Below are positions 2,211 through 59,213 of a stretch of 59,561 bases of DNA, piece by piece. The translations under genes and the position numbers were made by a program. This DNA comes from Terriglobia bacterium (lineage in GTDB: Bacteria; Acidobacteriota; Terriglobia; UBA7540), in the NCBI GenBank assembly GCA_035532595.1, contig DATKQU010000209.1:1-59561 (forward strand), in the 5' to 3' direction. The notes under the pieces were generated by a model, which saw only the letters and a list, made by a program, of their open reading frames with translations, did not search any database and was not told the DNA's origin. Numbering within the stretch: the stretch's first letter is position 1; each line of letters starts with the position of its first letter.

Positions 2211-3554
2211 TTAGACTTTCAGCTTCCACGGCGCGCGGTATTCCCGCATCAGGTATTGTTCCGCATTTCTTCCCGAGCTTCCGAACGCCAGGGCTTGCTT
2301 GCCAACATCCCAGACAATGCGTTCCTGGCTGCGCAAAGCGACGTTCCCCAGCAAACAGGCGCTGGTCGAACGATGCCCGATCTCGATATCGCTCGCGGGC
2401 CGCTGGCGTGACTTGACGCAATCCAGAAAGTTCCGCACGTGATCGAAGTGAGAATCGTTGGCCTCCTTCATTTGCATTGACGCCGTTTGCGCGACTTCCT
2501 TCCCGTCCAGCTTGCGCGATTCAGGGATGACCTCAAAACCGCCCCGGTCGACGAAGAGCGTTCCGTCGGTGCCGTGGAACTCAATGCCATAACTCTTGCC
2601 GTACATCGAGTTCGCGTTGTCCCAGCGATTCTCATAAACGCATACGAATTTGGGATTTTCGTACTGGTAGGTCACCTGGAGGGTGTCCGGAGTATCGGCG
2701 TTATCCTGAAGATAGAATTTCCCGCCCTGCGCGGTAATAACCTTCGGGCCGTCAACCTGCATTGCCCACTGGACGATGTCGATCAGGTGCACGCCCCAAT
2801 CGGTCATATACCCGCCCGCGTAATCCCAAAAATAGCGGAACGTCGACCAGCGTTCGCCCACCCCAAACCGATTCGAATTGAAAGGAACTTTCGGAGCAGG
2901 CCCCAGCCAGAAGTCCCAGTTCAGGTTTGAGGGCGGATCCGAATCGGCTGGGCTTCCGATGCCTTCCGGGTATTGATTGTCGTAATTCCAGGTGCGGACA
3001 AAGCTGACTTTGCCGATGAAACCATCCTGAACCAGCTTGACGGCCTTCTGGAAGTGAATGCCGGATCTCTGCTGCGTTCCGGCCTGCACGACCCGCTGAT
3101 ATTTGCGGGCGGCCTCCACCATGGCTTTGCCTTCATCGACACTGTGGCAAATGGGCTTTTCGACATAAACGTCTTTGCCGGCTTTGCAGGCCTCCACCAT
3201 CGGAAGCGCATGCCAGTGGTCCGGAGTGCCGATAATGACCACATTGATGTCCTGGCGATCCAGGATGTGTCGAAAGTCCGTGTAGGTCTGGGCCTTACCC
3301 TGGGTGGCCTCCAGGGCTTTATCAAGATTGGGCTGGTAGACGTCCGCCAATGCGGCGATTTCGACCTCCGGCTGCTTGGCGAAGTCTTTCAAATCATAAA
3401 GGCCCATGGCGCCAGTTCCGATGACGCCGGCAATGATCTTATCGTTGGCAGAAACCGTTTTCGCCGCACCGACGGCGGGAAATCCGATCCCTGCGCTCAC
3501 GGCCCCGATCGCGAAGCTTTTCATGAAGTCGCGTCGATTGAAGTCTTCGGTCAT
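2211..3554 (-). CDS. Gfo/Idh/MocA family oxidoreductase, Tat-exported
   Basis: Start moved to MTEDFNRRDFMKSFAIGAVSAG (twin-arginine motif). Rossmann motif IIAGVIGTGAMG. The ORF-track upstream 69 aa look like read-through. Confidence 0.85.
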   Translation of the reverse strand: MTEDFNRRDFMKSFAIGAVSAGIGFPAVGAAKTVSANDKIIAGVIGTGAMGLYDLKDFAKQPEVEIAALADVYQPNLDKALEATQGKAQTYTDFRHILDRQDINVVIIGTPDHWHALPMVEACKAGKDVYVEKPICHSVDEGKAMVEAARKYQRVVQAGTQQRSGIHFQKAVKLVQDGFIGKVSFVRTWNYDNQYPEGIGSPADSDPPSNLNWDFWLGPAPKVPFNSNRFGVGERWSTFRYFWDYAGGYMTDWGVHLIDIVQWAMQVDGPKVITAQGGKFYLQDNADTPDTLQVTYQYENPKFVCVYENRWDNANSMYGKSYGIEFHGTDGTLFVDRGGFEVIPESRKLDGKEVAQTASMQMKEANDSHFDHVRNFLDCVKSRQRPASDIEIGHRSTSACLLGNVALRSQERIVWDVGKQALAFGSSGRNAEQYLMREYRAPWKLKV

Positions 3555-3815
3555 GGTGAAGGTTCCGTTCCTTTCTTGGTGCGAGTTCCCTGCTTGGCGC
3601 CGATTGTATATCACCGCGGCCCCACATCCAAGCCGGGTCGCGGACTGCCTTGTGGTTTTCTTTGCATGAGCCGTGGGAGGGCGAAGCCTCAGGGTGGTGG
3701 GCGCAGGGTCATTCCTTTCTGCCGGAACTTTCCCGCAATGTGGCAAAATGGTTTGTTCCAAAGGGAGAGAAGGGGAGAGTGGTGAAATGGGATGCCGTGA
3801 GCTGCGCGGTGAAGC

Positions 3816-4154
3816 TTATTCCCTGCTCAACTTGCTGGCCAGGGTAAGAATTAGTTTTCGGTTGGCTGTGGACATATTTTCAAAATACTTCGCCAGCTTC
3901 CGCATCGATTTTGACTGGCTGGTGTGGGGAGGGACGCGGGCAGCCAACGGATGGCCGCCGCCGTGAAAAAGAAGCTGATAGGGTTCAACCTCCAAAGCCT
4001 TGGCGAACTTATCCAGCGTCGTCAAAGAAGGCGCGGTGTATCCGCCTTCCACACGGGAAATATACGAGCGCAACAAGCCCGAGCGCTTTTCAATGTCTCC
4101 CTGCGAGAGCCCTTTAGCCTCGCGCAGAGTCCGAATTCGCTTTCCGATATCCAC
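3816..4154 (-). CDS. XRE-family helix-turn-helix transcriptional regulator
   Basis: IRTLREAKGLSQGDIEKRSGLLRSYISRVEGG is a classic Cro/C1 HTH. Confidence 0.8.
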   Translation of the reverse strand: MDIGKRIRTLREAKGLSQGDIEKRSGLLRSYISRVEGGYTAPSLTTLDKFAKALEVEPYQLLFHGGGHPLAARVPPHTSQSKSMRKLAKYFENMSTANRKLILTLASKLSRE

Positions 4155-4264
4155 AGTCTTATCAGAACAGAAACCCCGTTCCTTGTCAATGATGGCCTAT
4201 TGTCGAAGTTGGTGGGATATTAGAATTAAATAATACAAAATTACCAGTCGGCAGGGAAGGCAAT

Positions 4265-5311
4265 CTAAGAGCTTGCGTGGCGGCGGGCTCGGCGGGAAGA
4301 TTCCGCCGAATGTCCCGCCGCGTGATGGGTTACACAATCAAGAAATGCCAGGGCCAGCAAGGCGCCTCCCGGCTCCGTCAGCGCCGGCAATAGCACGGAT
4401 ATCGCCGCGCTCCCGGAGAACTGCTGATCGTTGCTGTCCGTTATGGCGAAGAGTTTTCCGCCGTTTTTTTCCCCGGTGTCTGCTCCTACCTGGTGAACGA
4501 CCGCTTTGAGCGCGCAACGCGAGCCGGAAAGAATCACGACTCCGGTATCCTTTTCGATCAAGGGAAGCTCGGCATCGCGAAAATGCAGGAGTTCAAACCC
4601 TGCGGCCGGAAGCCCCGCCAGTTTCTCGAGATGGTGAGCGGCTTGAAGAGCGGCGGGGTGATACAGGCCGCCGCCGGTCACCACAACTTTCGGCAAGCTT
4701 CGGAGTTCGCCGGCAAGCGCCCGGGCAGCGTCGGTAAACTGATTGTGGACGCGCTCGATGTTTTCGGGCAGTTTTTCGAGTTCTGTTTCCTGTGCTTCCA
4801 CGAACGCCGCCGGCCGTTTCAGAACCCGCGCGGCGGCCAAAGCCAGAAAAAGCATTGCCGCATGCTGGCACAACGCCGACTGCATCCCATCGTCTGGGGC
4901 TTCATGAAGGTACAGTGGCGCGATACCGTCGGCCAGCGCGCCGAGCCTGCTGGCGGGGTTGGCCGTTAATCCCCAAACCATGGCGCCCCGGCTCTTCGCC
5001 GCTTGTGCGGCCTCCAACGTCTTCTCGCACTCGCCCGAAGGAGAAATCGCAATCAGCAGGGATCGAGAGGCGAGCACCGAACTGGTATAGGCAGTAAACA
5101 CCTCGGGGCTTCGCACCACAACCGGCAATTGCATGAGGGATTCAAAAGCATAGGCTCCCGTAAGCGCCGCCGAGTATGATGAGCCGCTGCCCGTTATAAA
5201 AACGGGCCTTTCACTCCAAGACGCCCGGCGAACCAGAGCGTCGTATTGGGGCCGTCCTTTCGCCCACATCAGCCGCAGCGCTCGCGGGATTTCAAGAATT
5301 TCCTGCCTCAT
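4265..5311 (-). CDS. Tandem-SIS-domain sugar phosphate isomerase/aminotransferase-like protein (GlmS isomerase-domain/AgaS-like)
   Basis: VFITGSGSSYSAA and LLIAISPSGE SIS motifs. Start chosen at MRQEILEIPRAL with AAGGCGGA upstream. The track start at 5341 is an alternative. Confidence 0.75.
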   Translation of the reverse strand: MRQEILEIPRALRLMWAKGRPQYDALVRRASWSERPVFITGSGSSYSAALTGAYAFESLMQLPVVVRSPEVFTAYTSSVLASRSLLIAISPSGECEKTLEAAQAAKSRGAMVWGLTANPASRLGALADGIAPLYLHEAPDDGMQSALCQHAAMLFLALAAARVLKRPAAFVEAQETELEKLPENIERVHNQFTDAARALAGELRSLPKVVVTGGGLYHPAALQAAHHLEKLAGLPAAGFELLHFRDAELPLIEKDTGVVILSGSRCALKAVVHQVGADTGEKNGGKLFAITDSNDQQFSGSAAISVLLPALTEPGGALLALAFLDCVTHHAAGHSAESSRRARRHASS

Positions 5312-5710
5312 ATTGGATTCCGCCTTAACAGCCGTCCCCATTGCCCGTTCCGGGTCGCGGCCAGGACAAGCGTGAAGGGGCCTTGTCGCCGCGGCCTACA
5401 AAACCGATCCACACCAGCATGGGAGCGTAGCAGATATTTGTACCATGAACCGGAGTCCGGCGGGTAAAACAGTGGCCGGCAGCTCGGAAAACGCCAGGAT
5501 AAGTTTGGCCCTGAAAACTCTCAAGGACATGCGGGGCGTTCCCTTTTCTGATTCGGGGAGTTCCGGCAGGATTGCGCCACCGGCCCTGCCAAAGGCCTGA
5601 AACCAATTCCTGGCGGCTTAATCTAATAGCTGGAGGAGCAGGCTTTGCTTTGCCATCAAGCGGGGAGTTATCCAGACCCCTGCGAGTTTGTTGAAAAGCG
5701 ATTTGGACAT

Positions 5711-5778
5711 GTCATGCGGCGCCCGTTCGCTTCGCTCAGGGCCGTTCGCAAGCTGAGGGCGAACGGGCTCAGGATGAC
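5711..5778. repeat. Half copy of the GTCATSCTGAG palindromic element
   Basis: GTCATGCGGCGCCCGTTCGCTTCGCTCAGGGCCGTTCGC-AAGCT-GAGGGCGAACGGGCTCAGGATGAC. Confidence 0.65.
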
Positions 5779-29100: not shown

Positions 29101-29297
29101 GGCCTCCCTAGTTTAATCCGAAACGGCTGTGGGAAGCACTCTCCCATCATGGCGGCGCGGAACGGTGCTTCCGGGCTTGCTTTACCGAACTGCCAGGTGC
29201 GAGCCGGACCGCCAGCATTGGCCGGCCCTGGAAAGCCGCCCAGCTTGAGCCGGCGTGCTTTTTCGTGGTATAAATGAGTCTGACAAGCAGTAGCAAT

Positions 29298-29464
29298 GAC
29301 CTTCGGGGCAGGGTGAGGGAAGAAAGGATTCTTCCCAATTCCCGATCGGCGGTAGAGCCCGCAAGGGGAAGAGGACGAGCAAGACTGCCGGATGGCAGAT
29401 GCCCGAATCCCCACGACCCGGTGAAACTCCGGGGCCGACGGTAAAGTCCGGATGGGAGAAGGTC
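29298..29464 (+). promoter_or_regulatory. FMN riboswitch (RFN element)
   Basis: P1 GACCTTC/GAAGGTC. Conserved GGGGCAGGGTGA...AATTCCCGATCGGCGGTAGAGCCCGC and GGTGAAACTCCGGGGCCGACGGTAAAGTCCGGATGGGAGAAGG. Lies upstream of ribE. Confidence 0.9.
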
Positions 29465-29726
29465 AGGGTCCCACGACCTCTGCGTTGCGGTCCATTGGCA
29501 GCCGCGGCGGAGTGTGGCCATGGGTATTGAGCGGTATCCCACCTTGCCCCGCGCGGGGAATTTCCCCCGATGATACTGAGATCCTGAACCCATTCCGATC
29601 CGTCGGGCTGATCTGCGGACCTTGAGCACGTCGCGGGCGGACCCCTCTCGAGCGCGCTTCAAAACACCGGGCGCGGCGAGGTGAGACCCGAATGCCAGCC
29701 GAAATTTCAGAGCAAGCGAGTGATTT

Positions 29727-30311
29727 GTGTTTAGCGGCATCGTAGAAGCAACTGGCATGGTTGTAGGGCTTGAGACCAAGCGGCAACAACGAGTCCTAAC
29801 CATCCGGAAGCCCTCGGGCTGGAAATTCCGGGAAGGAGAAAGCGTCTCGGTCGAAGGCGTGTGCTCAACGGTGCAGCAAACCAAGCGCGGCACGTTCCAG
29901 GTGACCTATATGCCTGAGACCCTGCGCAAATCGACTCTCGGCAGCTTGCGCCTCCACGACGAAGTCAACCTGGAACGCAGCCTCACGCTCAACACCCTGA
30001 TTGGCGGGCATCTCGTTCAGGGTCACGTGGACACCACGGGACGAATCCGAAAGATCAAGCCTGAAGGCGAGGCAAAAATTTACACCTTTGACGCTCCGGC
30101 GCGGTTTGCCCGCTACATTGTGCCCAAGGGTTCAATCGCCGTGGACGGCATCAGCCTCACGGTGGTCAATCCCCGGCGCAACACATTCGAAGTTTCCTTA
30201 CTGGCTTACACGCTCAGCCACACCACGCTGGGCAAGAAAGGCGTGGGCGATCGGGTCAACATCGAGGTTGACATGCTGGCGAAGTACATCGAAAGGCTGC
30301 TCGGAAAATGA
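29727..30311 (+). CDS. ribE: Riboflavin synthase
   Basis: GTG start, MFSGIVEATG N-terminus, two lumazine-binding repeats (second repeat GHLVQGHVD). Confidence 0.9.
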   Translation: MFSGIVEATGMVVGLETKRQQRVLTIRKPSGWKFREGESVSVEGVCSTVQQTKRGTFQVTYMPETLRKSTLGSLRLHDEVNLERSLTLNTLIGGHLVQGHVDTTGRIRKIKPEGEAKIYTFDAPARFARYIVPKGSIAVDGISLTVVNPRRNTFEVSLLAYTLSHTTLGKKGVGDRVNIEVDMLAKYIERLLGK

Positions 30312-30805
30312 GATTGCGAATCTCACCACCGGAACACGGAACATGGCAACTGCCTCGAAGCAAGGCCGCAAGGACCCGCCTGGCGATTATTCGGGCCGAA
30401 TACAACAGCGAGATCACCCGGAGCCTGGAAAAGAAGTGCGTGGAGAGCCTGATCGCAGCCGGAATCGCGCCGAAGAATATTAGCGTATACACCGTTCCCG
30501 GATGTTTCGAGATTCCGATCCTCGCTCAGAAATTGGCGGCCCATAAACGCTACGACGCGATGATTGCGCTGGGGGCCGTGATTCGCGGGGATACTTACCA
30601 CTTCGAACTGGTGGTGAACGGATGCGCGCAAGGCATCATGGAAGTTTCGCTGCGCCACAACGTGCCGATTATTTTTGAAGTTTTGGCAACCTACAACCGC
30701 CGCGACGCTCTGCGCCGCGCCGGGAACAATGACCTCAATAAGGGAATCGAGGCGGCCCGGTCGGCGCTTTCCTTGCTAGCCACGCTGAGCGAGATTAAGG
30801 ACTGA
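30308..30805 (+). CDS. ribH: 6,7-dimethyl-8-ribityllumazine synthase
   Basis: RLAIIRAEYNSEIT, VPGCFEIP, ALGAVIRGDTYHFE motifs. ATGA overlap with ribE. Confidence 0.9.
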   Translation: MRLRISPPEHGTWQLPRSKAARTRLAIIRAEYNSEITRSLEKKCVESLIAAGIAPKNISVYTVPGCFEIPILAQKLAAHKRYDAMIALGAVIRGDTYHFELVVNGCAQGIMEVSLRHNVPIIFEVLATYNRRDALRRAGNNDLNKGIEAARSALSLLATLSEIKD

Positions 30806-38698: not shown

Positions 38699-38787
38699 GG
38701 TAGTGGGTCGATTTGGCCGGGTAGCGGCAAGTTTACCTCGCCATGTGGCGGCATAAAGCCGCCTCTACGTCAAAATGACCCACTACC
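38699..38787. mobile_element. 89-nt MITE with GGTAGTGGGTC terminal inverted repeats and a perfect 8-bp TSD (GCCCGCTG)
   Basis: GCCCGCTG at 38691..38698 and at 38788..38795 flank the element. The second copy (4 mismatches) is at 52182..52270. Confidence 0.75.
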
Positions 38788-41404: not shown

Positions 41405-41761
41405 TCTTTGGCGGCGATCTCCCCCGAACAGCGCAAAGCGAAAAGCAGATTCCTCGCGGAGTTTACCCTGAGCCCCTTCGCTTCACTCAGGGCCGTTCGC
41501 TAGCGGAGGGCGAACGGGCTCGGAATGACTGTTTGAGGAGGCCGGTCGCCGACGGCACGTCGCCGCTACAATAGGCGTGCCGAAGGGACTTTCTTGCCGG
41601 GCGTAAAATGGAAGATGGTAGCCACGGACAGTGCCTTTCTGTCCGTGGGCCTTTCAATACGGCACCAACCCACTAAAGCTGTAGCGGCGATCTATGATCG
41701 CCGGCCGTTTGGAAAAATCAAAAACCGGCGGCCATAGGCCGCCGCTACAATAGGCGCGGGC
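41405..41761. repeat. REP cluster with three families
   Basis: GTCATSCTGAG-family copy 41445..41529. GTAGCGGCG half unit 41541..41570. GATGGTAGCCACGG hairpin 41614..41652. GTAGCGGCG palindromic doublet 41679..41749. Confidence 0.8.
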
Positions 41762-43093
41762 TCATTGCTTGATGATGGCGCCATCGTACCGCCGGATTTC
41801 TCCCCAGCCGCCGTTCAGGTGATCGGGGCCGCCGCGGAAAGGGTGCTTCGAGGCGAGCTGCTCATCCACTTCAATGCCCCACCCCGGCGCATCGCTGGCA
41901 TACAAATAACCGTCTTTATAAGTTGCGCAGCCCTTGAAAATCTCGGCCTCGAGCCCTTGGATGATGCCGCCCTCCTGGATGCCGAAGTTGGTGCTGGCAA
42001 GATCCAGATGCAATTGCGCCGTGTGGCCGACAGGCGAGACGTCCGGGGGGCCGTGCCACGCGGTCTTAACGCCATACTGCTCCGCGAGGATGGCGATCTT
42101 GCGCGCTGGCGTCAGGCCTCCGGCTTGCGACAAGTGAACGCGGATGTAATCGATCAGGCGCTCCTCAATCAGCGGCTGCCACTCGTGCGGGCTATTAAAG
42201 AGTTCTCCCATGGCCAAGGAGGTTGCGCACTGCTGCCGAATCTGCCGGAAGTAGTCGATGTCTTCGGGCGAGAGCGCGTCTTCCAGATAGAACAACCGAT
42301 AAGGCTCGAGTTCTTTGGCAAATTGCACGGCCTGGCGCGGGCTCACGCGCTCGTGCACGTCATGGATCAGCCCGATCTCTTCGCCGAGTTGTTTGCGGCA
42401 CTCTTCCAGCATTTGGCGCGTGCGGCGCATGTAAGGGCCCGGCTCGAACACGGGCCCCGAGTGCAACCCTTTCAATGGCGGGCCGCTACTCGGGCCGTAT
42501 CCGGACATGCCGGGCACCCCCACCATGACTTTGACACATTTGAATCCCTTCTCCATGGAGGCGCGGACGCGCTCGACGGCCTGGGAGGCCTCGACGGCGC
42601 CTACGGTGTCATAAGTGAGGGCAGCTTCCCGCGCCTTGCCGCCCAGCAACTGGTACACCGGCATGTTAGCCTGGCGGCCCTTGATGTCCCAAAGCGCCTG
42701 GTCCACGCCGCTGATGGCGTTGTTGAGCACCGGGCCGTTGCGCCAGTAGGAACTGTTGTAGCAGGCCTGCCAGGTGTCCTCGATGCGGTCCGCCGGCTTG
42801 CCGAGCAGGAGCGGCTTGAGATATTTTTCCACCGCGGGCACCACCAGATCGGCGCGCTGGGTAAAGGTGGCGCAACCGTAACCGTAAAGGCCATCCTGAT
42901 CGGTAAGAACCTTCACCACCACCAGGCGCACGGCGCCGGGCTGGGTGGCGATTACCTGGATGTCTTTGATGATGGGAGACGGCAAGCCACTGATCGCGCG
43001 CGCCTCTTGCTCCCTGGCCGCGAGCGGCTCCGCCGACAAGGCCGCGCCGGCAACTCCCGCCACGGCAAGGTGAAAACATTCTCTTCTGTCCAT
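41762..43093 (-). CDS. Enolase-superfamily dehydratase, D-mannonate dehydratase (ManD)/RspA-like, with an N-terminal Tat-like signal
   Basis: ADRIEDTWQACYNSSYWRNGPVLNNAISGVDQALWDIKGRQANMPVYQLLGG matches the ManD-type N-terminal domain. N-terminus is MDRRECFHLAVAGVAGAAL. Confidence 0.85.
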   Translation of the reverse strand: MDRRECFHLAVAGVAGAALSAEPLAAREQEARAISGLPSPIIKDIQVIATQPGAVRLVVVKVLTDQDGLYGYGCATFTQRADLVVPAVEKYLKPLLLGKPADRIEDTWQACYNSSYWRNGPVLNNAISGVDQALWDIKGRQANMPVYQLLGGKAREAALTYDTVGAVEASQAVERVRASMEKGFKCVKVMVGVPGMSGYGPSSGPPLKGLHSGPVFEPGPYMRRTRQMLEECRKQLGEEIGLIHDVHERVSPRQAVQFAKELEPYRLFYLEDALSPEDIDYFRQIRQQCATSLAMGELFNSPHEWQPLIEERLIDYIRVHLSQAGGLTPARKIAILAEQYGVKTAWHGPPDVSPVGHTAQLHLDLASTNFGIQEGGIIQGLEAEIFKGCATYKDGYLYASDAPGWGIEVDEQLASKHPFRGGPDHLNGGWGEIRRYDGAIIKQ

Positions 43094-49645: not shown

Positions 49646-49901
49646 GGCCCTCTTGCACTAAAAGTCTGTTAAGTTTTTAAACGTTTGATTCTATCGTTCA
49701 CGCCGTCCATGTGTCAATCCAAACCTCAGCAAGGTGGTGTCCAATTTGCCTGAGCCGGTCGCGTAAATAACTTGCTTTTGGAGACAAAATATAACCCACA
49801 ACACACTGAAAGTGTATCATGGGCTACCCGGCCTTATGCGGGTGCCGTTGTACGTTCAACAGACAACGAGGAGCAAAGAACACCAGCTAAACCAGTACAA
49901 C

Positions 49902-50780
49902 ATGACTATTGGTATTAGTTTACTTTGCGAGTCTGGCAACACACTTCTATTGGGAGCAGATGCACGTGCGTCGTATGCTGGTACGCAACCGCTCCCCCGC
50001 CCGCATGATGATATGTGCAAGATATTTACTCTTCCTTTGGGGTTTCAAGCCGTTATCGCCGGATACTTTGATGCCTGCGAAGCCGTGATAGCCTCTCTTA
50101 CAGAAGCATTTAGGCGCGTTAAACAAGAATTACAAGGAAAAGAAGTGGGGCTAGATCATCTTCGTTTTGCTGTTACAGAAGCAGAAGCGCACGAATGGCA
50201 GATTATTCTTGATAGGGAATTTCAAAAACATCTTGGTATACGGCATCGGGATTGGACAACAGGCCCGCTAGATACGCGCCTAGTTCGAGCGGGTAAGCGG
50301 ATAGTACAGCAAACAAATTTTCCCGTACACCTCATCATTACCGGTTTTACCAGCTATGAGCCAATCATTTTCACTGTATCGGGACTCGATACTATCAGTT
50401 TCCCGCAAAAATTTGCTGTTATTGGCAGCGGTTTTACATTGGCAACAAACGCCTTAAATCAACGCCAGCAGTATGAGCACATGACCTTTCAAAGAAGTGT
50501 CTTTCACTTGATCGAGGCACTAGAAGCGGCAAGGCAAGAACCGCAAGGAACGGTTGGACCGCCAAGGGACATTGTTGTAATCGAGAGAGGGGCCTATAGG
50601 TCGCTACCTGTCCAAGACCCCGTCGTGCGCCAATTGCTATCACAGTATCAAGGCAAAGACAGCAAAGACCTCGATAACGATAATGCCATTCGGCAAAAGC
50701 TACAAAGTATTTTGTACGCCAATCCGCTTGATGAAAGCAATCGGGGGCCGTCGCCGGGCGGGGTTATACCTTCTTCTTAG
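49902..50780 (+). CDS. Proteasome-beta/HslV-like Ntn-hydrolase-fold protein (orphan)
   Basis: MTIGISLLCESGNTLLLGADARAS resembles the T1...G-x-x-L-x-x-D-x-R proteasome-beta N-terminus. A Lys-Ile pair (CKIF) follows downstream, and AVIGSGFTLA appears later. Upstream track starts (49812, 49836) are possible as a propeptide. Confidence 0.55.
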   Translation: MTIGISLLCESGNTLLLGADARASYAGTQPLPRPHDDMCKIFTLPLGFQAVIAGYFDACEAVIASLTEAFRRVKQELQGKEVGLDHLRFAVTEAEAHEWQIILDREFQKHLGIRHRDWTTGPLDTRLVRAGKRIVQQTNFPVHLIITGFTSYEPIIFTVSGLDTISFPQKFAVIGSGFTLATNALNQRQQYEHMTFQRSVFHLIEALEAARQEPQGTVGPPRDIVVIERGAYRSLPVQDPVVRQLLSQYQGKDSKDLDNDNAIRQKLQSILYANPLDESNRGPSPGGVIPSS

Positions 50781-50925
50781 CCCATCGCGCTAACACCGCT
50801 TTCCGCGCTGACTGACTGCGTTGCTCTGGCGTCATAGCTGCGGCCCTGGCAGGACCGCCCTTCTTACCACCCTTGCTTCCGAGCTTGGCAAGGTAAGCTC
50901 GAAGTTCTGGAGGCATCTTGTTCAT
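50764..50925 (-). CDS. Candidate 53-aa lysine/arginine-rich small protein (below the ORF-track cutoff)
   Basis: Reads MNKMPPELRAYLAKLGSKGGKKGGPARAAAMTPEQRSQSARKAVLARWAKKKV. Convergent with, and overlapping by 17 nt, the 3' end of the Ntn-hydrolase-like gene. Confidence 0.35.
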   Translation of the reverse strand: MNKMPPELRAYLAKLGSKGGKKGGPARAAAMTPEQRSQSARKAVLARWAKKKV

Positions 50926-50966
50926 GGCCCAAACCTACCTGAGCCGCTCACGAAAGTCAAGGAAAA

Positions 50967-51128
50967 CTAGAGTGGGTGCTTCTTGAGATACAAAAACATG
51001 CCGTATGCGAGCATTACGGCGAGCATAAAGCCGTACTTACCTTTTTCTGAAGCCAGCCACAAAATGAACGTTGCGCTCGCCAATAAGCCCACAAGTGCAA
51101 ATAGCGATTTTGAAGAGTTGTCCGCCAT
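50967..51128 (-). CDS. Candidate 53-aa two-helix small membrane protein (below the ORF-track cutoff)
   Basis: Reads MADNSSKSLFALVGLLASATFILWLASEKGKYGFMLAVMLAYGMFLYLKKHPL. Two hydrophobic stretches. Weak RBS. Confidence 0.35.
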   Translation of the reverse strand: MADNSSKSLFALVGLLASATFILWLASEKGKYGFMLAVMLAYGMFLYLKKHPL

Positions 51129-51310
51129 AGGTTTTTAGGGTTTCCGGTGTGCCTGTGCCAAGGCGTCGCTTCGGCGCGGTGTGTATGGCATTTCCCCGCC
51201 TACTGGCAACGGCGATAGCCCGAGCAACAGGCACGCCGGAAATATAGCACAACCCTACGCTTAACTAGTGTCAAAACTGCCTGCAATGCAGTGCAGGCCT
51301 AAAAGTTTAT

Positions 51311-51651
51311 GGGGTGAGTAGGTCTGAGGGCTGGTGTCAATCCAGACACCAGCCCCTTAACGCCGGGCTGGTTTCTGTTAACGAGTTGCCAGTCCGACGG
51401 CAACGATTGCCAGAAGGTCAAAACCGCCTTACGACGACTCCGTTTCGGACGCAGCGCAGAATCCCTGCTTTGCGTCAGGATGCATAGTCTCTATAGGCAA
51501 AGTACACCTATGGCAAGATGGCTGTTGCCGTACCGTTGCGCGGCTGATCCTGCCGCCATCCGCACTTCTGGCCCCAGGTGCATCAAAAGTGTTTTCAATG
51601 CACACCTCCTCCCGGAGTGCCGGGTCGCCAGAATTGTAACTCACCCCACCA
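51311..51651 (+). ncRNA. Candidate structured RNA of unknown class
   Basis: A 9-bp long-range helix GGGGTGAGT (51311..51319)/ACTCACCCC (51639..51647), followed by ACCA, encloses at least 6 local hairpins (for example the 11-bp GGGCTGGTGTC/GACACCAGCCC at 51328..51355). No convincing ORF. Confidence 0.3.
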
Positions 51652-51757
51652 GTTCTGATACCGATTAAGTCACCGGCAGTGATGTCCGATCTGCCATGAG
51701 TAGCTTACGCAAATAGTTAACCTGTAGGGCAACCAAATCCAAAAAGAGAGGTATGCA

Positions 51758-52102
51758 ATGACCAAAACGCAGTGCTATAGTTCTTGGCCGGAGGGTCTAT
51801 ACCGCATGAGCCAAGAAGATCAAGACAAGCAGTTTATCAGCGACCTACAAAAATATACCGAGTTGCAAGCTAGCTTGGCGTCTGTCCAAGCAACGCTCAC
51901 CGACATCGGAAGAAATCTGAAAGGAACAGGTGAGAGCGTGGAACGCGACCCTTATAACTGCTCAACCGAGTGGGGTATATTTAAGAGCCAAACAAGCCAA
52001 ATTGAGGGGCTCGTAAAGCAGTTCAAAGAGGAATCGAACGAAAGCCAAAGGCTTGCAGAGTCATTAAGAAAAAGACGGTTTACCTTCCCGCCCAATAAGT
52101 AA
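51758..52102 (+). CDS. Hypothetical coiled-coil protein (114 aa)
   Basis: AGAGAGG RBS. Heptad-like LQKYTELQASLASVQATLTDIG and IEGLVKQFKEESNESQRLAESL. No family recognised. Confidence 0.5.
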   Translation: MTKTQCYSSWPEGLYRMSQEDQDKQFISDLQKYTELQASLASVQATLTDIGRNLKGTGESVERDPYNCSTEWGIFKSQTSQIEGLVKQFKEESNESQRLAESLRKRRFTFPPNK

Positions 52103-52181
52103 CCAACTCACGCAATTCCACCACCAAAGCCTGTGCAAGTACGTGACCGGCTCAGGCAAATTAGGACACCACCCTCAGCAA

Positions 52182-52270
52182 GGTAGTGGGTCAATTTGGC
52201 TGGGTAGCGGCGAGTTTACCTCGCCATGTGGCGGCATAAAGCCGCCTCTAGGTCAAAATGACCCACTACC
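52182..52270. mobile_element. 89-nt MITE (second copy) directly abutting the cassette TSD
   Basis: Same element as 38699..38787. Flanked by CTCAGCAA (52174..52181) and CTCAGCGA (52271..52278). Confidence 0.75.
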
Positions 52271-52457
52271 CTCAGCGACTTAGCCTACACGCGCTGGATC
52301 GACCGCGCTTGCAAAGCAATCCTCCAGGCTTAAGCGGCCAGGAAGAGCGTTTTCACAACGAAGAGGAACGCCAAGCCTGCCGTCCCGGCTGCGCTGTCGG
52401 AGTAAATTCGAAGTAAAGAGCGAATCGGCCTTCGCAGACCGAATGCAGGGAAAAACA

Positions 52458-53023
52458 GGTAAGCGCGAGCAAGCCTGTAAGCCGAATTTTGTACCCCGGA
52501 GGTCCGGGGTGGCGATCATTCATCTAGCCCCGTCATTGCTGGCGGGGTCAAGCGACCTACCCGAGAGTTGCCAGCCCGTAGCGGCGGCCCGTGACCGCCG
52601 TGCGCGGCCCGCGGGAACCCCGGCGATCACCGATCGCCGCTACAGACCTTGCGGAGCGGGTCACTCCTCCTCTCCTATTTGGTCTTGCTCCGTGTGGGGT
52701 TTGCCCTGCCCCCCATATCGCTATGGAGGCGGTGCGCTCTTACATTAAGCCGCCTGCGCGGCCGCACCTTTTCACCCTTACCGCGTCCCCATTCTGGAAT
52801 TCCAGAGGAGACGCCGGCGGTATCTTTTCTGTGGCACTTTCCGTACCGGAGGCGTACGCTCGCTTGCGCGAAATCCCCCTCCGGCCCTCGCTGTTAGCGA
52901 GCACACTACCCTGTGGAGTTCGGACTTTCCTCTCCTCCGCTCCCGCTTGCCTGCCCCGTGCCCGTGAAGGCCGGAAACAGGCGCCTGAGCGGAGCAGCGA
53001 TCACCCGGCTTACTCGCGCTGCC
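52458..53023 (-). ncRNA. rnpB: RNase P RNA, bacterial type A, unusually long
   Basis: The minus strand reads GGAGGAGAGGAAAGTCCGAACTCCACAGGG, GGTAAGGGTGAAAAGGTGCGG...TAAGAGCGCACC, CACGGAGCAAGACCAAATAGG and GGGTAGGTCGCTTGA...CTAGATGAATGATCGCCAC...ACAAAATTCGGCTTACAGG. P1 is GCGCGAGTAAGCC/GGCTTGCTCGCGC. Ends are good to about 5 nt either way. Confidence 0.9.
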
Positions 53024-53078
53024 AGATTTTATGATAGGCTTTGGAAGACGGCGGGGTCAAGCGGCCCGGCGTCTGCCT

Positions 53079-54419: not shown

Positions 54420-54960
54420 TCCCCAGGCTGGTTTCTCCAAAGGCGATCCGGTTGCCGTCTTGCTATGGTTTGCCGGGAACCGCTTCTGTGCCAGCGTCTT
54501 TCACAGCAGGCAGCGCAGGGCTCGCAACGGGCGGCTTTTCGTCTCTGTAGCGGCGATGTGCCATCGCCGGATTTGCCGCCCTTCCAGTTCTTGCGGTTTG
54601 CGGGATCGCGCCCCTCATGCTCTGTAGCGGCGTCTATGACCGCCGGCCTTTGCCGTTCTGCAATCTCAAATCTGCAATCTTCAATCGCCGCGAGCCGGCA
54701 GCCTCGGCATGCTCTCTATGCCGCGCGCCCTTCGCTCCAGAACGTATGCGGATTGCCGAAAACGGGCGGACACCGTCCGCCCCTACGATCCGAGCGGCGC
54801 TTTGTCGCCGGTTGGTTTGTAGGGGCAATTCACGAATTGCCCTTTTGGAGTTCGTCGCCACATCCCCCGCCCCGCTTCGCGTTTATTCCTGTAGCGGCGC
54901 TCTGCGAGCGCCGGTTCGTGCTTAGATAAAAACCGGCGGTCATAGAGCGCCGCTACAGTG
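54420..54960. repeat. REP cluster (BIME-like) in a 785-nt noncoding gap
   Basis: CTGTAGCGGCG-loop-CGCCGG units at 54545..54570 and 54621..54645. Palindromic doublet at 54889..54957. Other hairpins GGGCGGACACCGTCCGCCC (about 54763) and GGGGCAATTCACGAATTGCCC (about 54822). AATCTSAAATCTGCAATCTTCAATC tract. Confidence 0.8.
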
Positions 54961-55204: not shown

Positions 55205-57604
55205 ATGCATGATCAGCCTGAAGCTTTTTCCCGTGTCCTGATAGATCAAGCCCTCCGAGAGAGTGATTGGGACCTCCTCGACCCGCACCGGGTTCGTTTT
55301 GAGCTTAATGGTCATAGCGGGCGGGCGGATTATGTCTTGAGCGGGTCGCGCGGGCCGCTCTGCGTTTTGGAAGCCAAGCGCGAAGATAAGGACCCCTACG
55401 AAGCCAAAGAGCAAGCGCGCGGCTATGCGGAAAACCTTCGTGCGCCCTTCATTATTCTTTCCAACGGGCGAGAACATTGGTTCTGGAACTACGAGCGAGC
55501 AGACCAGCGTGATGCCTACCGCATCGAGCGCTTACCGTCCCCCCAAGACCTCGACCGTCTCCGCCTCAAGAATCTCCAGCCGCCCCGTCCCTTAATGACG
55601 GAGGTCATTGGGCCAGATTACCTTAACGCGTACAAGCCGGACGTGACATTGCGGCGTTACCAGATCGCCGCCATGGATGAAGTTTCAAGGCAGTTTGACG
55701 ACCAGGGAAAACGAAGGTTTCTGCTGGAAATGGCCACCGGGACCGGTAAAACGCTCTTGTGCGCGGCGCTGATTCGCCGTTTCCTTGCCACGCGAAACGC
55801 CGAGCGCGTGCTTTTCATCGTGGACCGTATCGAACTGGCAAAGCAAACGATGGAGGACTTTAACGTCGTGCTGCGGGAATTCAGCCCCGTAGTGTTCAAG
55901 ACCGCACGCCGCCACCCGTCGGAATTGCTGGGCTCCTGCGTGGTGGTGGCAACGCTCCAATCCCTCATGGTGGACCGTCGCTTTCGCCAGGAGTTCACGC
56001 CATTCCACTTTGATCTGGTCATTGCCGATGAAGCGCACCGTTCCATATATGGCAACGCTCGCGAGGTCGTACATTTCTTTCAGGCGACTCGCATTGGCCT
56101 GACTGCCACGCCCAAGGCATATCTCAAGAATATTGATTTGGCCCGGCTCGGGCGGGAAAACCCTAAAGCCCTTGAAGCCCGCGAGCTTCGCGACACCTAC
56201 CACTACTTTGGCTGCGAGGCCGGTTTCCCCACATTTCGCTATGACATCATTGAGGCCGTCCAGGACCCCGAAGGGCCGTTCCTCTGCATGCCGAAGATTT
56301 ACGACATCCGTTCGGACATCACCACTCAGGCACTGGACGAAAACGGCTGGGCCGTGGTGGTTAACGAACAGGAGGAAAACTTCAAGATTCAGGACCTGGA
56401 GCGCAAAATCTTCACCCCGGAGCGGAACCGGGTGATGTGCGAAGCGTTTCTCAAACATGCCCAAAAGGACCCTTCCGGCCAGATCGGCAAGTCCGCCATT
56501 TTTGCGGTCAATCAAGACCACGCGACGAACCTTACTAAAATCCTTAACCTCATCCAGCCGGGCTTGGCCGTCACCATCACTTCGCGTATTCCCGAAGCGG
56601 CTTCCATCTCGAAAGATTTCCGCGACGGCAAGCGCTCCGAGCGCGTGGCGGTGTCCGTCGATATGCTCTCCACGGGGTACAACTGCCGCGACCTGTTGAA
56701 TGTGGTCCTCATGCGGCCGATTTTTTCTCCCACCGAATACATCCAGATCAAGGGCCGGGGCACGCGCCTTTTCACTTTTCGCTTTGGCAACACCGAATAC
56801 GAAAAGAAAGTATTCTTCCTGCTTGATTTCTGCGGGGTGGCCGAGTACTTCGAGGACACGTACGATTACAGCGAACCCCTGCCCATCCCCGTCCTGAGGG
56901 GAAAGCCATCCGTGCAGCTTGAGGTGGCACGGGCTTCCAGCCCGTGGACGGATGACACGGGCATTCTGCCTACGGCCAGGCACGGTCAAGATGACCATGC
57001 CACAGGCATCCCCGTGTGGGAAGGCAAGGACGTCATCATTTCCGAAGAAATCCGTATCGTGGGACCCAACGGTGAAAAGGTGGATGTGATGACCTTCCGG
57101 GGTTCTTTCGAGCGGGACATCAAAGAATTTGACCGTAAGGATGAGGAATTTCACGAAGCGGTCGAGACTGAAGGCGATGACGCCGTTGAAGAAATCCTTG
57201 GCGAACGTTTCTTTCACAAACCCGAGATGTTTTATTCCCCGGACAAACTGGTGTTATCCTATGGCGTTCCGGCTCCTACGCCTACTTTTGTTTACGGCGC
57301 TCTGGGCAAGAAGCCCTTGCCGAGCAAAGACGAGGTGGTTGCCGATGCCGTGGATTCCATCGCCGCGCGGTTCAATCTCCACTACAGCGAACAGAAGTGG
57401 TTGAACGCCACGGCACAGCTTCTCGCGCATGACCCGGCGGCTCTCAAACGCTTTGCGCAGGGTGACATGACGATTTTCGCGTCCAGCCAGTTCAATCAAT
57501 TGGGGGGCCTCGAAGCGCTGAACGAATTCACTGACCGCGACGAGGTTTTTGAGGCGCTTCGGCAATCCACCATGGTCCGCCAGTCGCTTCTGGCCGCTCA
57601 GTAA
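55205..57604 (+). CDS. hsdR: Type I restriction enzyme R subunit (EcoEI-type C-terminal domain)
   Basis: PD-(D/E)xK region ADYVL...VLEAKRE. Helicase motifs MATGTGKT, IADEAHRS, IGLTATP, QIKGRGTR. C-terminal FNQLGG tail. Contains an in-frame REP copy. Confidence 0.9.
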   Translation: MHDQPEAFSRVLIDQALRESDWDLLDPHRVRFELNGHSGRADYVLSGSRGPLCVLEAKREDKDPYEAKEQARGYAENLRAPFIILSNGREHWFWNYERADQRDAYRIERLPSPQDLDRLRLKNLQPPRPLMTEVIGPDYLNAYKPDVTLRRYQIAAMDEVSRQFDDQGKRRFLLEMATGTGKTLLCAALIRRFLATRNAERVLFIVDRIELAKQTMEDFNVVLREFSPVVFKTARRHPSELLGSCVVVATLQSLMVDRRFRQEFTPFHFDLVIADEAHRSIYGNAREVVHFFQATRIGLTATPKAYLKNIDLARLGRENPKALEARELRDTYHYFGCEAGFPTFRYDIIEAVQDPEGPFLCMPKIYDIRSDITTQALDENGWAVVVNEQEENFKIQDLERKIFTPERNRVMCEAFLKHAQKDPSGQIGKSAIFAVNQDHATNLTKILNLIQPGLAVTITSRIPEAASISKDFRDGKRSERVAVSVDMLSTGYNCRDLLNVVLMRPIFSPTEYIQIKGRGTRLFTFRFGNTEYEKKVFFLLDFCGVAEYFEDTYDYSEPLPIPVLRGKPSVQLEVARASSPWTDDTGILPTARHGQDDHATGIPVWEGKDVIISEEIRIVGPNGEKVDVMTFRGSFERDIKEFDRKDEEFHEAVETEGDDAVEEILGERFFHKPEMFYSPDKLVLSYGVPAPTPTFVYGALGKKPLPSKDEVVADAVDSIAARFNLHYSEQKWLNATAQLLAHDPAALKRFAQGDMTIFASSQFNQLGGLEALNEFTDRDEVFEALRQSTMVRQSLLAAQ
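56924..57003 (+). repeat. GTGGCACGGGC-type REP copy inside hsdR
   Basis: GTGGCACGGGCTTCCAGCCCGTG...CACGGTCAAGATGACCATGCCAC, translated as ...VARASSPW...ARHGQDDHAT. Confidence 0.75.
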
Positions 57605-57606
57605 AG

Positions 57607-57658
57607 GTGGCACGGGCATCTTGCCCGTGAAGCCTCATGGCCCGGAGGGCCATGCCAC
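57607..57658 (+). repeat. GTGGCACGGGC-type REP copy in the hsdR-hsdM spacer
   Basis: GTGGCACGGGCATCTTGCCCGTGAAGCCTCATGGCCCGGAGGGCCATGCCAC. Two nested hairpins inside an outer GTGGCA/TGCCAC stem. Confidence 0.8.
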
Positions 57659-57681
57659 AGGGCAATTAGCTGATTCTTCTT

Positions 57682-59124
57682 ATGGGAAATAACACGCAAC
57701 AACACAACGGGAGTAATTTTCATTCCTCCGGCCTGCGCCAAAAGATTGACCTGCTCATGGACATCCTTTGGGCGGGCGGCGTGAATAACCCCATGGATTC
57801 CATCGAGCAGATTTCCTACTTGCTCTTTCTGCGCCTGCTCACGGAAAGGGATGACATTCTCGCCTCGCTCCAGAAGAAGGGCTACCAGCGCATCTTTTCG
57901 GGATCGTGGGCGCGCTACGCCTGGGGGAATTTTGTCACCCTCACCGGCGATCAGCTTTTTGACGCCGTCCGGTCTGCGATTGAAAGCATCCACGAACTGC
58001 CGGGGCTTTCGGGAACCGGAAAACTTCTTTTCAATCGCGCCACGCTCAAGATTTATGACCGCCCCACGCTTCGGGCCGTTGTCCAGGCCATCCATGAGAT
58101 GGATCTTGCCTCACACAATGGACATGACATCAAGGGCGATATGTACGAGTACCTGCTCAGCAAACTCCAATTGTCCGGCACCAACGGCCAATTCCGGACC
58201 CCGCGCCACATTATCGCCATGATCGTGGCACTCGTTGATCCCAAGCCGGGAATGCGCATCTGCGACCCTGCCTGTGGCACAGCAGGCTTCCTCATCGCAG
58301 CATACAACCATATCTTGCGGCAGAACACATCCAAGGCGGCGCTCGCCAAAGGCGATTCAGACGGCGATTTATTGAAGCCTGCACAATGGAGATTCCTGGA
58401 GGAACACGCCTTCACCGGCTATGACAATGACGCCAACATGGTAAAGATTGCGATTTTGAATCTTTATCTGCACAAGCTGGAAAGGGCCAACATTGAGCTT
58501 CACAATCCCCTGACCACAAGCAAGGGTAACCCCTATCCCGGCTTCACCTTTGACACGATTCTCGCCAATCCGCCGTTTGCGGGACAGATTCAAAAGGAAA
58601 GTATCCTTGCGGACATCAACCTTGAGACGCGAGACACAGAACTGCTCTTCCTCAAGTGGTTCCTCGACCACCTGAATCCCGTCGGACGCGCCGGTGTGAT
58701 CGTTCCGAACGGCGTGTTTAAGCCCTATTCCGGCGTCGGCACTGCGGCGCTGATTCTTGAAAAATGTGGCACGGGCGTCCCTCCCGTTAAAGACCATGGT
58801 CAGGATGACCATGCCACGGAGTTTGTCTGGTTCTATGACCTCACGGCGGATGGATTTTCCCTCGATGATAAGCGCGCTCCAATTGAGGCCAATGATATTC
58901 CCGATGTTCTAGCTAAATGGCCCAAGCGCGAAGAAGGTCCGAACAGTTACCGTGTGCCAATTGAGAAGATTCGCGAGCACGATTGGAGTCTCGCGTCAGG
59001 CAGATACAAGCCGGTGGTGGTGGAGACGGTTAAGCACGATGCACCGGCAAAAATTGTCGGCGCCATCTTGAGTCTCGAGAAGCAGATCACCGAAGAAATC
59101 CAGAAGCTGATGGAGAAGCTGTAA
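57682..59124 (+). CDS. hsdM: Type I R-M N6-adenine DNA methyltransferase subunit, probably defective
   Basis: HsdM N-terminal domain, motif I DPACGTAGFL, motif IV NPPF. Carries an in-frame REP insertion and appears to lack about 30 aa between PNGV and FKPYSGV. Confidence 0.8.
   Translation: MGNNTQQHNGSNFHSSGLRQKIDLLMDILWAGGVNNPMDSIEQISYLLFLRLLTERDDILASLQKKGYQRIFSGSWARYAWGNFVTLTGDQLFDAVRSAIESIHELPGLSGTGKLLFNRATLKIYDRPTLRAVVQAIHEMDLASHNGHDIKGDMYEYLLSKLQLSGTNGQFRTPRHIIAMIVALVDPKPGMRICDPACGTAGFLIAAYNHILRQNTSKAALAKGDSDGDLLKPAQWRFLEEHAFTGYDNDANMVKIAILNLYLHKLERANIELHNPLTTSKGNPYPGFTFDTILANPPFAGQIQKESILADINLETRDTELLFLKWFLDHLNPVGRAGVIVPNGVFKPYSGVGTAALILEKCGTGVPPVKDHGQDDHATEFVWFYDLTADGFSLDDKRAPIEANDIPDVLAKWPKREEGPNSYRVPIEKIREHDWSLASGRYKPVVVETVKHDAPAKIVGAILSLEKQITEEIQKLMEKL
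58766..58817 (+). repeat. GTGGCACGGGC-type REP copy inside hsdM
   Basis: GTGGCACGGGCGTCCCTCCCGTTAAAGACCATGGTCAGGATGACCATGCCAC, translated as CGTGVPPVKDHGQDDHAT. Confidence 0.8.
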
Positions 59125-59127
59125 GGT

Positions 59128-59213
59128 GTGGCACAAACGTGGCACGGGCGTCCCGCCCGTGAAGAACCATGGCCAGGAGGGCCATGCCACTGCGCATGAC
59201 CAGGATGGTCATG
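59128..59213 (+). repeat. REP array (partial unit, full unit and an extra hairpin) between hsdM and the RAYT gene
   Basis: GTGGCAC-AAAC-GTGGCACGGGCGTCCCGCCCGTGAAGAACCATGGCCAGGAGGGCCATGCCAC-TGCG-CATGACCAGGATGGTCATG. Confidence 0.8.

Follow-up and report, generated by a model that had tools for sequence, protein, structure and literature searches.

Introduction

Repetitive extragenic palindromic (REP) elements are short GC-rich palindromes with a GTAG tetranucleotide at the head, and two REPs in inverted orientation make up a doublet (REPIN) that folds as a single hairpin (PMC3733652; PMC3116915). REPs are defined by the GTAG-headed form of their palindromes, which have a transposase-linked origin, and REP doublets are mobilized by the REP-associated tyrosine transposases (RAYTs) (PMC3733652; PMC3116915). 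A survey of 2013 listed no GTAG-type REPs for Acidobacteria, only RAYT-like genes flanked by terminal inverted repeats (PMC3733652). Here I describe a REPIN nested inside the RNase P RNA gene (rnpB) of a Terriglobia bacterium of the phylum Acidobacteriota. The gene lies in the contig DATKQU010000209.1 of the assembly GCA_035532595.1, whose whole stretch of 59,561 nucleotides was analyzed and is called the window. As in known REP systems, GTAG is found at the 5′ foot of an imperfect palindrome rich in GC, the copies in the window are dispersed and mostly intergenic, inverted doublets with a spacer form one long hairpin, and the copy number varies between related genomes. Unlike in those systems, the present copy resides in an essential ribozyme gene, is orthologous across a clade, and has had its RNA helix preserved instead of the REP hairpins, and no RAYT was seen among the 26 open reading frames (ORFs) of the window that were scanned.

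Other repeats are known from rnpB. Repetitive sequences that are short and repeated in tandem (STRRs), a kind of dispersed repeat, are mentioned as occurring inside the rnpB genes of heterocyst-forming cyanobacteria in a passage of PMC2858038 that cites Vioque 1997 (NAR 25:3471). There as here, a repeat family dispersed in the genome lengthens a peripheral helix and the function is kept. The STRRs are reportedly tandem heptanucleotide repeats located in the helix P12. In contrast, the present element is an inverted doublet between P17 and P16 and not a tandem array in P12; a new helix results from it, and its site is known in the empty as well as the filled state. In Thermodesulfatator indicus, a P12 expansion is excised from the RNase P RNA, which results in a fragmented but functional RNA (PMC9945441). 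Like that segment and the intervening sequences (IVSs) of rRNAs, the present insert is a long, peripheral, extra helix of one lineage that is missing in close relatives. Excision is demonstrated there, whereas a mobile-repeat origin is the best-supported point here and is not established there.

Small palindromes inside genes are also known. REPs within protein genes have been described (PMC3733652), and insertions of Rickettsia palindromic elements and similar sequences into structural RNA genes are mentioned in part of PMC5896051, citing Ogata 2002. The Rickettsia elements, the MITEs (miniature transposable elements with inverted repeats) and the REPs in genes resemble the present case in being small mobile palindromes that entered permissive positions and were then inherited. 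After insertion into protein genes, the palindrome is said to decay. The Rickettsia elements are mostly in protein genes, whereas the palindrome described here is kept as an RNA helix. A literature search for a REP, MITE or REPIN within an RNase P RNA found no direct report. Dispersed repeats in rnpB and palindromes in genes are thus already known; what is unusual in the present case is that the donor family, empty sites, filled sites and 20 descendants are all visible.

Results

A REP doublet inside rnpB

The palindrome found in the window rnpB is a member of the GTAG-headed REP doublet (REPIN) family of this genome. On the minus strand, the gene contains CTGTAGCGGCGATCGGTGATCGCCGG-(19 nt)-ACGGCGGTCACGGGCCGCCGCTACGG at positions 52576-52645 (70 nt). 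A preliminary description of the window had quoted this segment, and re-reading of the sequence found it on the minus strand inside rnpB; of the coordinates given for it (52578-52645), the end is right and the start is to be moved to 52576. It had also ascribed the same architecture to two intergenic doublets at 41679-41749 and 54889-54957, and the agreement in head, arms, spacing and fold is indeed far beyond chance. The rnpB element and the intergenic doublets have in common the head CTGTAGCGGCG, a variable stem of 3 nt with covarying partners, a CGCCGG foot, and an inverted second unit. The window has six exact occurrences of the 11-mer head where 0.02 would be expected, and none of 100 shuffles reached six. 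In both rnpB arms and all of the intergenic copies, the head of the unit reads (C)TGTAGCGGCG or CCGTAGCGGCG, that is, it has the GTAG tetranucleotide. Beside the head lies a palindrome, GGCGATC-NNN-GATCGCC or variants thereof, whose stems covary among the window copies (ATC/GAT, CTC/GAG, ATG/CAT, and GCC/GGC).

In a repeat search, the complementarity of the 26-nt arms of the rnpB element was 92% with 41679-41704 and 85% with 54889-54914. A six-way alignment has invariant columns common to both arms and an overall length of 70-72 nt. Each of the doublets at 41679-41749, 54889-54958 and 52576-52645 takes the form of a single long, irregular hairpin whose internal loops correspond in position, with minimum free energies (MFEs) of -40 to -51 kcal/mol and z-scores of -4 to -10. 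When nhmmer was run with an rnpB profile, the doublet at 41679-41749 was matched, and the match (E=8e-6 in 1.4 Mb) involved no profile positions other than 373-439; the likeness is therefore confined to the insert. Outside rnpB, seven REP units were found at two sites in the 59.5-kb window, all of them intergenic (Table 1).

The window RNA itself is a full-length class A RNase P RNA. The covariance model (CM) RF00010 scored it at 236.5 bits, above the curated gathering score of 100, with E=1e-75 and with model positions 1-367 of 367 aligned. The complete CM match, a promoter-like site and the conserved core suggest that the gene is apparently expressed and functional.

Position of the insert in the ribozyme

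The insert occupies J17/16, the single-stranded stretch joining P17 to the P16 3′ strand, and adds a third helix there. The order in the window RNA is GAGAG-GA-GGAGUGACCCGCUCC-GC-[81 nt]-AA-CUCUC-GGGUAGG. In seven genes of a sister clade, the order is AGGGG-A-GGGGCGGCCCGCUCC-GCUAYAA-CCCUC-GGGUAGG, in which P16 and a bulge of one base are followed by the P17 hairpin, the joiner of 7 nt, the 3′ strand of P16 and the 3′ side of L15. The cmscan alignment puts an insertion of about 76 nt between the P16 5′ strand and P17/P16 3′, and RNAalifold and single-sequence folding agree on the third helix (MFE of the domain, -75.6 kcal/mol; z = -5). The P15-L15-P16-P17 module is complete, with the AAAUAG/GGGUA internal loop, a P16 of 5 bp and a P17 of 4 bp with a 7-nt loop. 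RNAalifold pairs the P16 columns 6-10 with 115-119, with AU/GC covariation. The P6 pseudoknot formed by the P17 loop covaries by clade, being GGGU/ACCC in 17/17 insert-bearing genes and GGGC/GCCC in 7/7 sister-clade genes.

In type A RNase P, the GGU of L15 pairs with the 3′-CCA of tRNA (G292/G293/U294 in Escherichia coli). This CCA-binding GGU lies within CGGGUAGG, 3′ of P16. The doublet had initially been thought to begin after an L15-like AAGGT and to have become, or replaced, P16/P17. That AAGGU is not L15, since the true GGU is located 3′ of P16 at 52558-52562, and P16 (GAGAG/CUCUC), the P17 hairpin and the P6 pairing are all present. An element that follows L15 and replaces P16/P17 is ruled out by the CM alignment, the empty-site comparison and RNAalifold.

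The window rnpB exceeds the 367-nt consensus by 188 nt. In the cmscan alignment, the excess is distributed over P3 (~+42), P9 (+29), P12 (+17), the P13 loop (+19) and the P16/P17 region (~+80). About 81 nt is owed to the insert, and the remainder consists of older expansions of P3, P9, P12 and P13, which are common, in some form, to the insert-less sister clade (RNAs of 444-497 nt). The length had been put at ~566 nt, while the RF00010 match spans 555 nt, and it had been explained jointly by the doublet and by expanded P3 and P12 helices; both helices are expanded, and P9 and P13 contribute too.

Filled and empty sites in related rnpB genes

The rnpB orthologues were gathered via synteny with the DUF6782/DUF8575 protein gene, from contigs encoding its homologues. 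The naming of these homologues points to an uncultured member of Terriglobia as the source of the window. Further rnpB genes came from species-representative genomes and from a metagenome scan with a pattern spanning P15-P17. In all, 32 related rnpB genes were compared, and all of the relatives are metagenomic contigs or metagenome-assembled genomes (MAGs). In every related contig where it was found, rnpB adjoins the DUF6782/DUF8575 gene (one gene away in L004/L109).

The insert is carried by 20 distinct rnpB sequences (the window, L001/L091, L002/L095/L103, L004, L005, L086/L094/L101, L088, L090, L092, L093, L096, L097, L098, L099, L100, L102, L104, L105/106, L107/108, and L109/110). The DUF6782 proteins of the insert-bearing contigs are 64-100% identical to that of the window. 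An empty site, CUCCGC-UAYAA-CCCUC, was found in the sister clade (L006, L007, L011, L012, L014, L015, and L016), where the neighbor protein is 50-59% identical. Another empty site, CUCCGC-UUCCA-CUCUC, was found in L085, whose P17 sequence is in common with the insert-bearing genes. The L085 rnpB encodes a compact type A RNA of 376 nt, 64-68% identical to the others; given this length and identity, a precise loss inside the clade was ruled out and L085 is regarded as an outgroup.

Outside the insert columns, the insert-bearing genes are 81-100% identical among themselves and 73-85% identical to the sister clade. In a neighbor-joining tree of ~500 non-insert columns that included 17 of the 20 insert-bearing sequences, these 17 genes are monophyletic (bootstrap, 171/200). 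The length of the site jumps from 7 nt (empty) to 81 nt (filled) with no intermediates. The simplest history is a single gain of the insert by the clade's ancestor. The event is old and not recent, because the identity of the neighbor protein within the clade is now down to 64%. A lineage-conserved native segment unrelated to the repeats had been named as the alternative; the segment is conserved, in the 20 rnpB sequences, but the sister clade lacks it and it is clearly related to the repeats, and a native, unrelated segment is rejected. In two of the eight empty sites, CCGCUACAA resembles the REP end CGCCGCUACAG, which was considered as a target-site clue and is given here as a mere observation.

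Maintenance of the helix

Covariation was assessed in a MAFFT alignment of 17 distinct related sequences. The doublet-wide hairpin comprises 26 pairs with 98.0% of the cells paired, and both sides have changed in six pairs (21 cells). For example, the column pair 53:88 is AU in eight sequences and GC in seven, and 57:84 is GC in 10 and AU in six. None of 500 shuffles matched this hairpin in covariation score or percent paired, a significance that is inflated by the kinship of the sequences. Slid-partner controls were 25-59% paired, and the RNAalifold consensus of the insert is the long hairpin. The model of two separate REP hairpins was 84% paired, which is no better than its shuffles, and two independent REP hairpins were rejected as the conserved RNA structure.

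The stem reaches outward past the REP ends, through GGCC/GGCC with a bulged U, with GC/GU/AU variation (RNAalifold). Minority bases number 0.25-0.9 per column in the basal 12 bp (GUAGCGGCGAUC / GAYCGCCGCUAC), a level comparable to that of the catalytic core, and 7.3 per column in the apical 42 nt, which is comparable to P12. The apex is shortened by 20 nt in five contigs (L086, L094, L096, L101, and L104) representing three distinct sequences, and the L005 insert is without the G of the left GTAG. As read from these alignments, the pattern is the signature that selection on an RNA helix, and not on a transposon, would leave.

Mobility of the family and direction of copying

Same-head units exist in the intergenic DNA of other lineages, namely at 3457 in L107 and as doublets at 689/736 in L107 and at 1148/1220 in L016; single and doublet GTAGCGGCG units were both found in the intergenic DNA of L107 and L016. 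The REP cluster downstream of the window DUF6782 gene is missing from L002 and L107. Presence/absence polymorphism between relatives is thus seen for the rnpB site (filled or empty), for this REP cluster and for a P13 unit in L014. In the L014 rnpB (2390-2886), a single unit CTGTAGCGGCGCUCGAUGGGGCGCCGG lies in the loop of the P13 extension at 2603-2629 on the minus strand (sequence CTGTAGCGGCGCTCGATGGGGCGCCGG). The CM insertion in P13 is 52 nt there and 25 nt elsewhere, and the J17/16 site of L014 is empty. This unit is a second, independent REP insertion into rnpB.

The intergenic copies of the window carry GGTCAT.G like the inserts of other species, unlike the derived insert of the window, GGTCACGG. 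Recent copying out of rnpB is therefore disfavored. In L089 (998-1400), an rnpB (model positions 12-328 only) ends within a REP doublet that is followed by unrelated coding-like sequence, and the spacer of the doublet is AT-rich as in the intergenic copies. L089 is likely a chimeric assembly join across the repeat; alternatively, it may be a disrupted gene.

A different kind of length change was observed in the L004 rnpB (2538-3124), which has an extra 59 nt after P13 at ~2810-2870 (minus strand). The added stretch duplicates the neighboring P13/P14 sequence in inverted form (GGCTCAATGTAAGAGCGCACCGCC ... GGCGGTGCGCTCTTACATTAAGCC), and it could be either a real hairpin expansion or an assembly artifact.

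Origin and fate of the insert

I consider it probable (about 0.68) that a REPIN inserted into a permissive joiner of rnpB and has since been maintained as an expansion helix that folds on itself. One GTAG-headed copy would have entered rnpB once, in the ancestor of the subclade, at the 7-nt single-stranded joiner linking the P17 hairpin to the P16 3′ strand. The insertion was presumably mediated by REP-associated tyrosine (Y1/HUH) transposases acting on single-stranded DNA, and the family may already have been present at that time. Self-folding of the element, at a site in a peripheral joiner, would have spared both the CCA-binding GGU and the native architecture of P15/L15/P16/P17/P6, and the ribozyme would have tolerated the insertion. 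When transcribed, the element may form an autonomous irregular hairpin of ~26-30 bp, which would turn the P16-P17 stack into a three-way junction. After fixation, selection would have acted on the RNA helix, with compensatory substitutions keeping the doublet-wide pairing. Decay or deletion would have affected the individual REP hairpins, the spacer at the apex and the GTAG head of one lineage, and the element would have become a lineage-specific expansion segment. I assume that the helix is retained in the mature RNA, where its role may be structural or near-neutral. As for the earlier idea of a REP exapted into an essential ribozyme, a GTAG REP doublet does lie inside an apparently functional rnpB with its helix kept, but not as P16/P17.

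Several observations weigh against this history. The Pfam scan found no RAYT/Y1 transposase domain among the 26 window ORFs that it covered. Few units were found outside the window species: type-A units outside rnpB number seven in 59.5 kb of the window species and ~1-3 in ~200 kb of insert-bearing relatives. The kinship of the 17 sequences inflates the significance of the covariation, though the slid controls and the two-hairpin comparison agree with it. The basal 12 bp are closer to invariant than the upkeep of a helix would by itself need. Lastly, RNase III could cleave a duplex so long and nearly perfect.

The last point leads to an IVS-like fate, in which the REPIN-derived duplex is cut from the transcript, e.g., by RNase III, and the ribozyme consists of two pieces held together by the surrounding helices. 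Duplexes of ~26-30 bp are of the size class cleaved by RNase III, and the insert forms a quasi-continuous duplex of this size. The hypervariable and sometimes deleted apex would suit a part that is discarded. On the other hand, the conserved and compensated basal 12-20 bp suit excision and retention equally, and the conserved mismatches and bulges could, speculatively, be RNase III antideterminants. This explanation concerns the fate of the RNA and not the origin of the insert, and I consider it possible though rather unlikely.

The invariance of the basal 12 bp invites another thought. The two strands (GUAGCGGCGAUC / GAYCGCCGCUAC) are the motif of the mobile family, and they might be recognized sequence-specifically by a protein, such as a RAYT or an RNase P cofactor, or through a tertiary contact; or else rnpB might be a preferred REP target, given the insertions in both J17/16 and P13. 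If the base were recognized in this way, a domesticated REPIN/RAYT system would be functionally tied to tRNA processing. I hold this idea to be doubtful.

It is very unlikely that the helix is native to the ribozyme, with a REP likeness due to convergence of GC-rich palindromes, or that rnpB was the source of the intergenic repeats. Such a view could draw on the rnpB copy being older than any datable single intergenic copy, on the abundance of type-A units outside rnpB in the window species only, and on the lack of a transposase among the scanned ORFs of the window. However, the likeness is too specific for convergence, extending to inverted identical 11-nt heads, the stem, the CGCCGG foot, the length and the fold, and GTAG palindromes define the transposase-linked REPs (PMC3733652; PMC3116915). 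In addition, same-head units occur in lineages without the J17/16 insert (in L016, and in another rnpB helix in L014), the intergenic copies share states of the ancestral insert and not those of the derived insert of the window, and the site passes from 7 nt to 81 nt without intermediates. A pseudogene or a chimeric assembly, with a working rnpB elsewhere, is hardly credible: L089 does show that assemblies or genes can be broken by repeats at this site, but the same architecture recurs in 20 distinct sequences, whose samples and assemblers are independent (JGI, ENA, and NCBI MAGs), with a constant DUF6782 neighborhood, a full CM match and an invariant catalytic core, and the pseudogene alternative raised at the outset is contradicted by this conservation together with the compensatory changes across species.

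The source of the helices inserted into rRNA, RNase P RNA and other structural RNAs is, to my knowledge, almost never visible. For the insertion of a REPIN into rnpB, both states survive (7-nt empty and 81-nt filled sites), and the donor family is identifiable in the same genome. The later history is legible from the 20 orthologues, with a frozen base, an apex that varies and shrinks, and the loss of the transposon-specific hairpins. In the accretion model, which has been applied to RNase P, the RNA grows by stepwise insertion of expansion segments (PMC12974513). The present locus would be a concrete case of an essential ribozyme obtaining new helices from mobile palindromes that fold on themselves. 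It also extends the GTAG-type REP/REPIN elements to Acidobacteriota. It accounts for these rnpB genes exceeding the family model in length by ~80-190 nt, and for the breaks that repeats within rnpB can cause in metagenomic assemblies, as in L089.

Features of the locus and other elements of the contig

Table 1. Coordinates of rnpB, its P15-P17 region and the REP units in the window.
Feature	Position	Strand	Remarks
rnpB for a bacterial RNase P RNA of type A (555 nt)	52462..53016	-	cmscan, RF00010
Promoter-like TTGACC-18-TATCAT (sigma-70-like, putative)	53031..53060	-	Ends ~15 nt upstream of the RNA 5′ end; 10/12 consensus matches vs 0.2 expected (consensus scan)
P6 5′ strand GGGU (RNA positions 106-109)	52908..52911	-	Pairs with ACCC of the P17 loop (52658-52661)
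P16 5′ strand GAGAG	52670..52674	-	cmscan alignment; RNAalifold
Native P17 hairpin GGAG-UGACCCG-CUCC	52653..52667	-	Loop forms P6; in insert-bearing and empty-site rnpBs alike
Segment missing from empty-site relatives (RNA positions 367-447, 81 nt)	52570..52650	-	New helix in the P17-to-P16 joiner
5′ REP unit CTGTAGCGGCGATCGGTGATCGCCGG	52620..52645	-	24/26 identical to the intergenic unit 41679-41704
3′ REP unit, inverted (plus strand CCGTAGCGGCGGCCCGTGACCGCCGT)	52576..52601	-	
P16 3′ strand CUCUC	52563..52567	-	
L15 3′ side GGGUA, including the CCA-binding GGU	52558..52562	-	Model consensus CGGGUAgg, full posterior probability
Terminator-like hairpin, then T-rich tail	52420..52435	-	Directly 3′ of the RNA end; weak, shuffles yield 1.4 such sites
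Single REP unit TTGTAGCGGCGACGTGCCGTCGGCG	41547..41572	-	
Intergenic REP doublet (REPIN) of the rnpB-element family	41679..41749	+	Between ORFs ending at 41404 and starting at 41765
Two single REP units, tandem orientation	54545..54647 (54545-54570, 54622-54647)	+	
Intergenic REP doublet (REPIN) of the rnpB-element family	54889..54958	+	Between the DUF6782 gene (end 54419) and a helicase gene (start 55205)

Other repeats surround rnpB. An 89-nt MITE-like element was found at 38699-38787 and 52182-52270 (96% identical), and also in L002 (~2500-2590), L087, L095 and L103. It has terminal inverted repeats (GGTAGTGGGTC.../...GACCCACTACC) around two GTAGCGGCG-type hairpins, and the window, L001 and L002 have a copy at one and the same position between dksA and rnpB. 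A 2.4-kb segment of lower GC content (49753-52172; 44-55% vs ~60%) adjoins rnpB and is missing from the 99.8%-identical strain contig L001. It ends in terminal inverted repeats of ~33 nt (GGTGGTGTCCAATTTGCCTGAGCCGGTCGCGTA) with the direct repeat CCTCAGCAAGGT. Its ORFs at 49812-50780 (322 aa) and 51758-52102 (114 aa) matched no credible Pfam or NCBIfam family. From its sequence, the segment looks like an uncharacterized mobile element, and its ends resemble those of the adjacent 89-nt element.

A dispersed repeat family of ~88 nt is present at 2096-2183, 5691-5778 and 41442-41529 (72-92% identical) and holds a GC-rich palindrome (GGGCCGTTCGC...GCGAACGGGCTC). Two of the copies flank a gene block at 2211-5341, and one adjoins the REP cluster at 41.5 kb. 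Four palindromic repeats of another kind (..GTGGCACGGGC-loop-GCCCGTG.. then CCATGGCC...GGCCATGCCAC) are found at 56922-59196 with a spacing of 370-1160 nt. The predicted helicase ORF (55205-57604) has one copy well within it (56922-56946) and a second overlapping its final codons, and the other two are in or just past the ORF at 57682-59124. Finally, an FMN (flavin mononucleotide) riboswitch (RF00050, 94.6 bits) is located at 29295-29467, upstream of riboflavin genes for a lumazine-binding riboflavin synthase (29727-30311) and a lumazine synthase (30308-30805).

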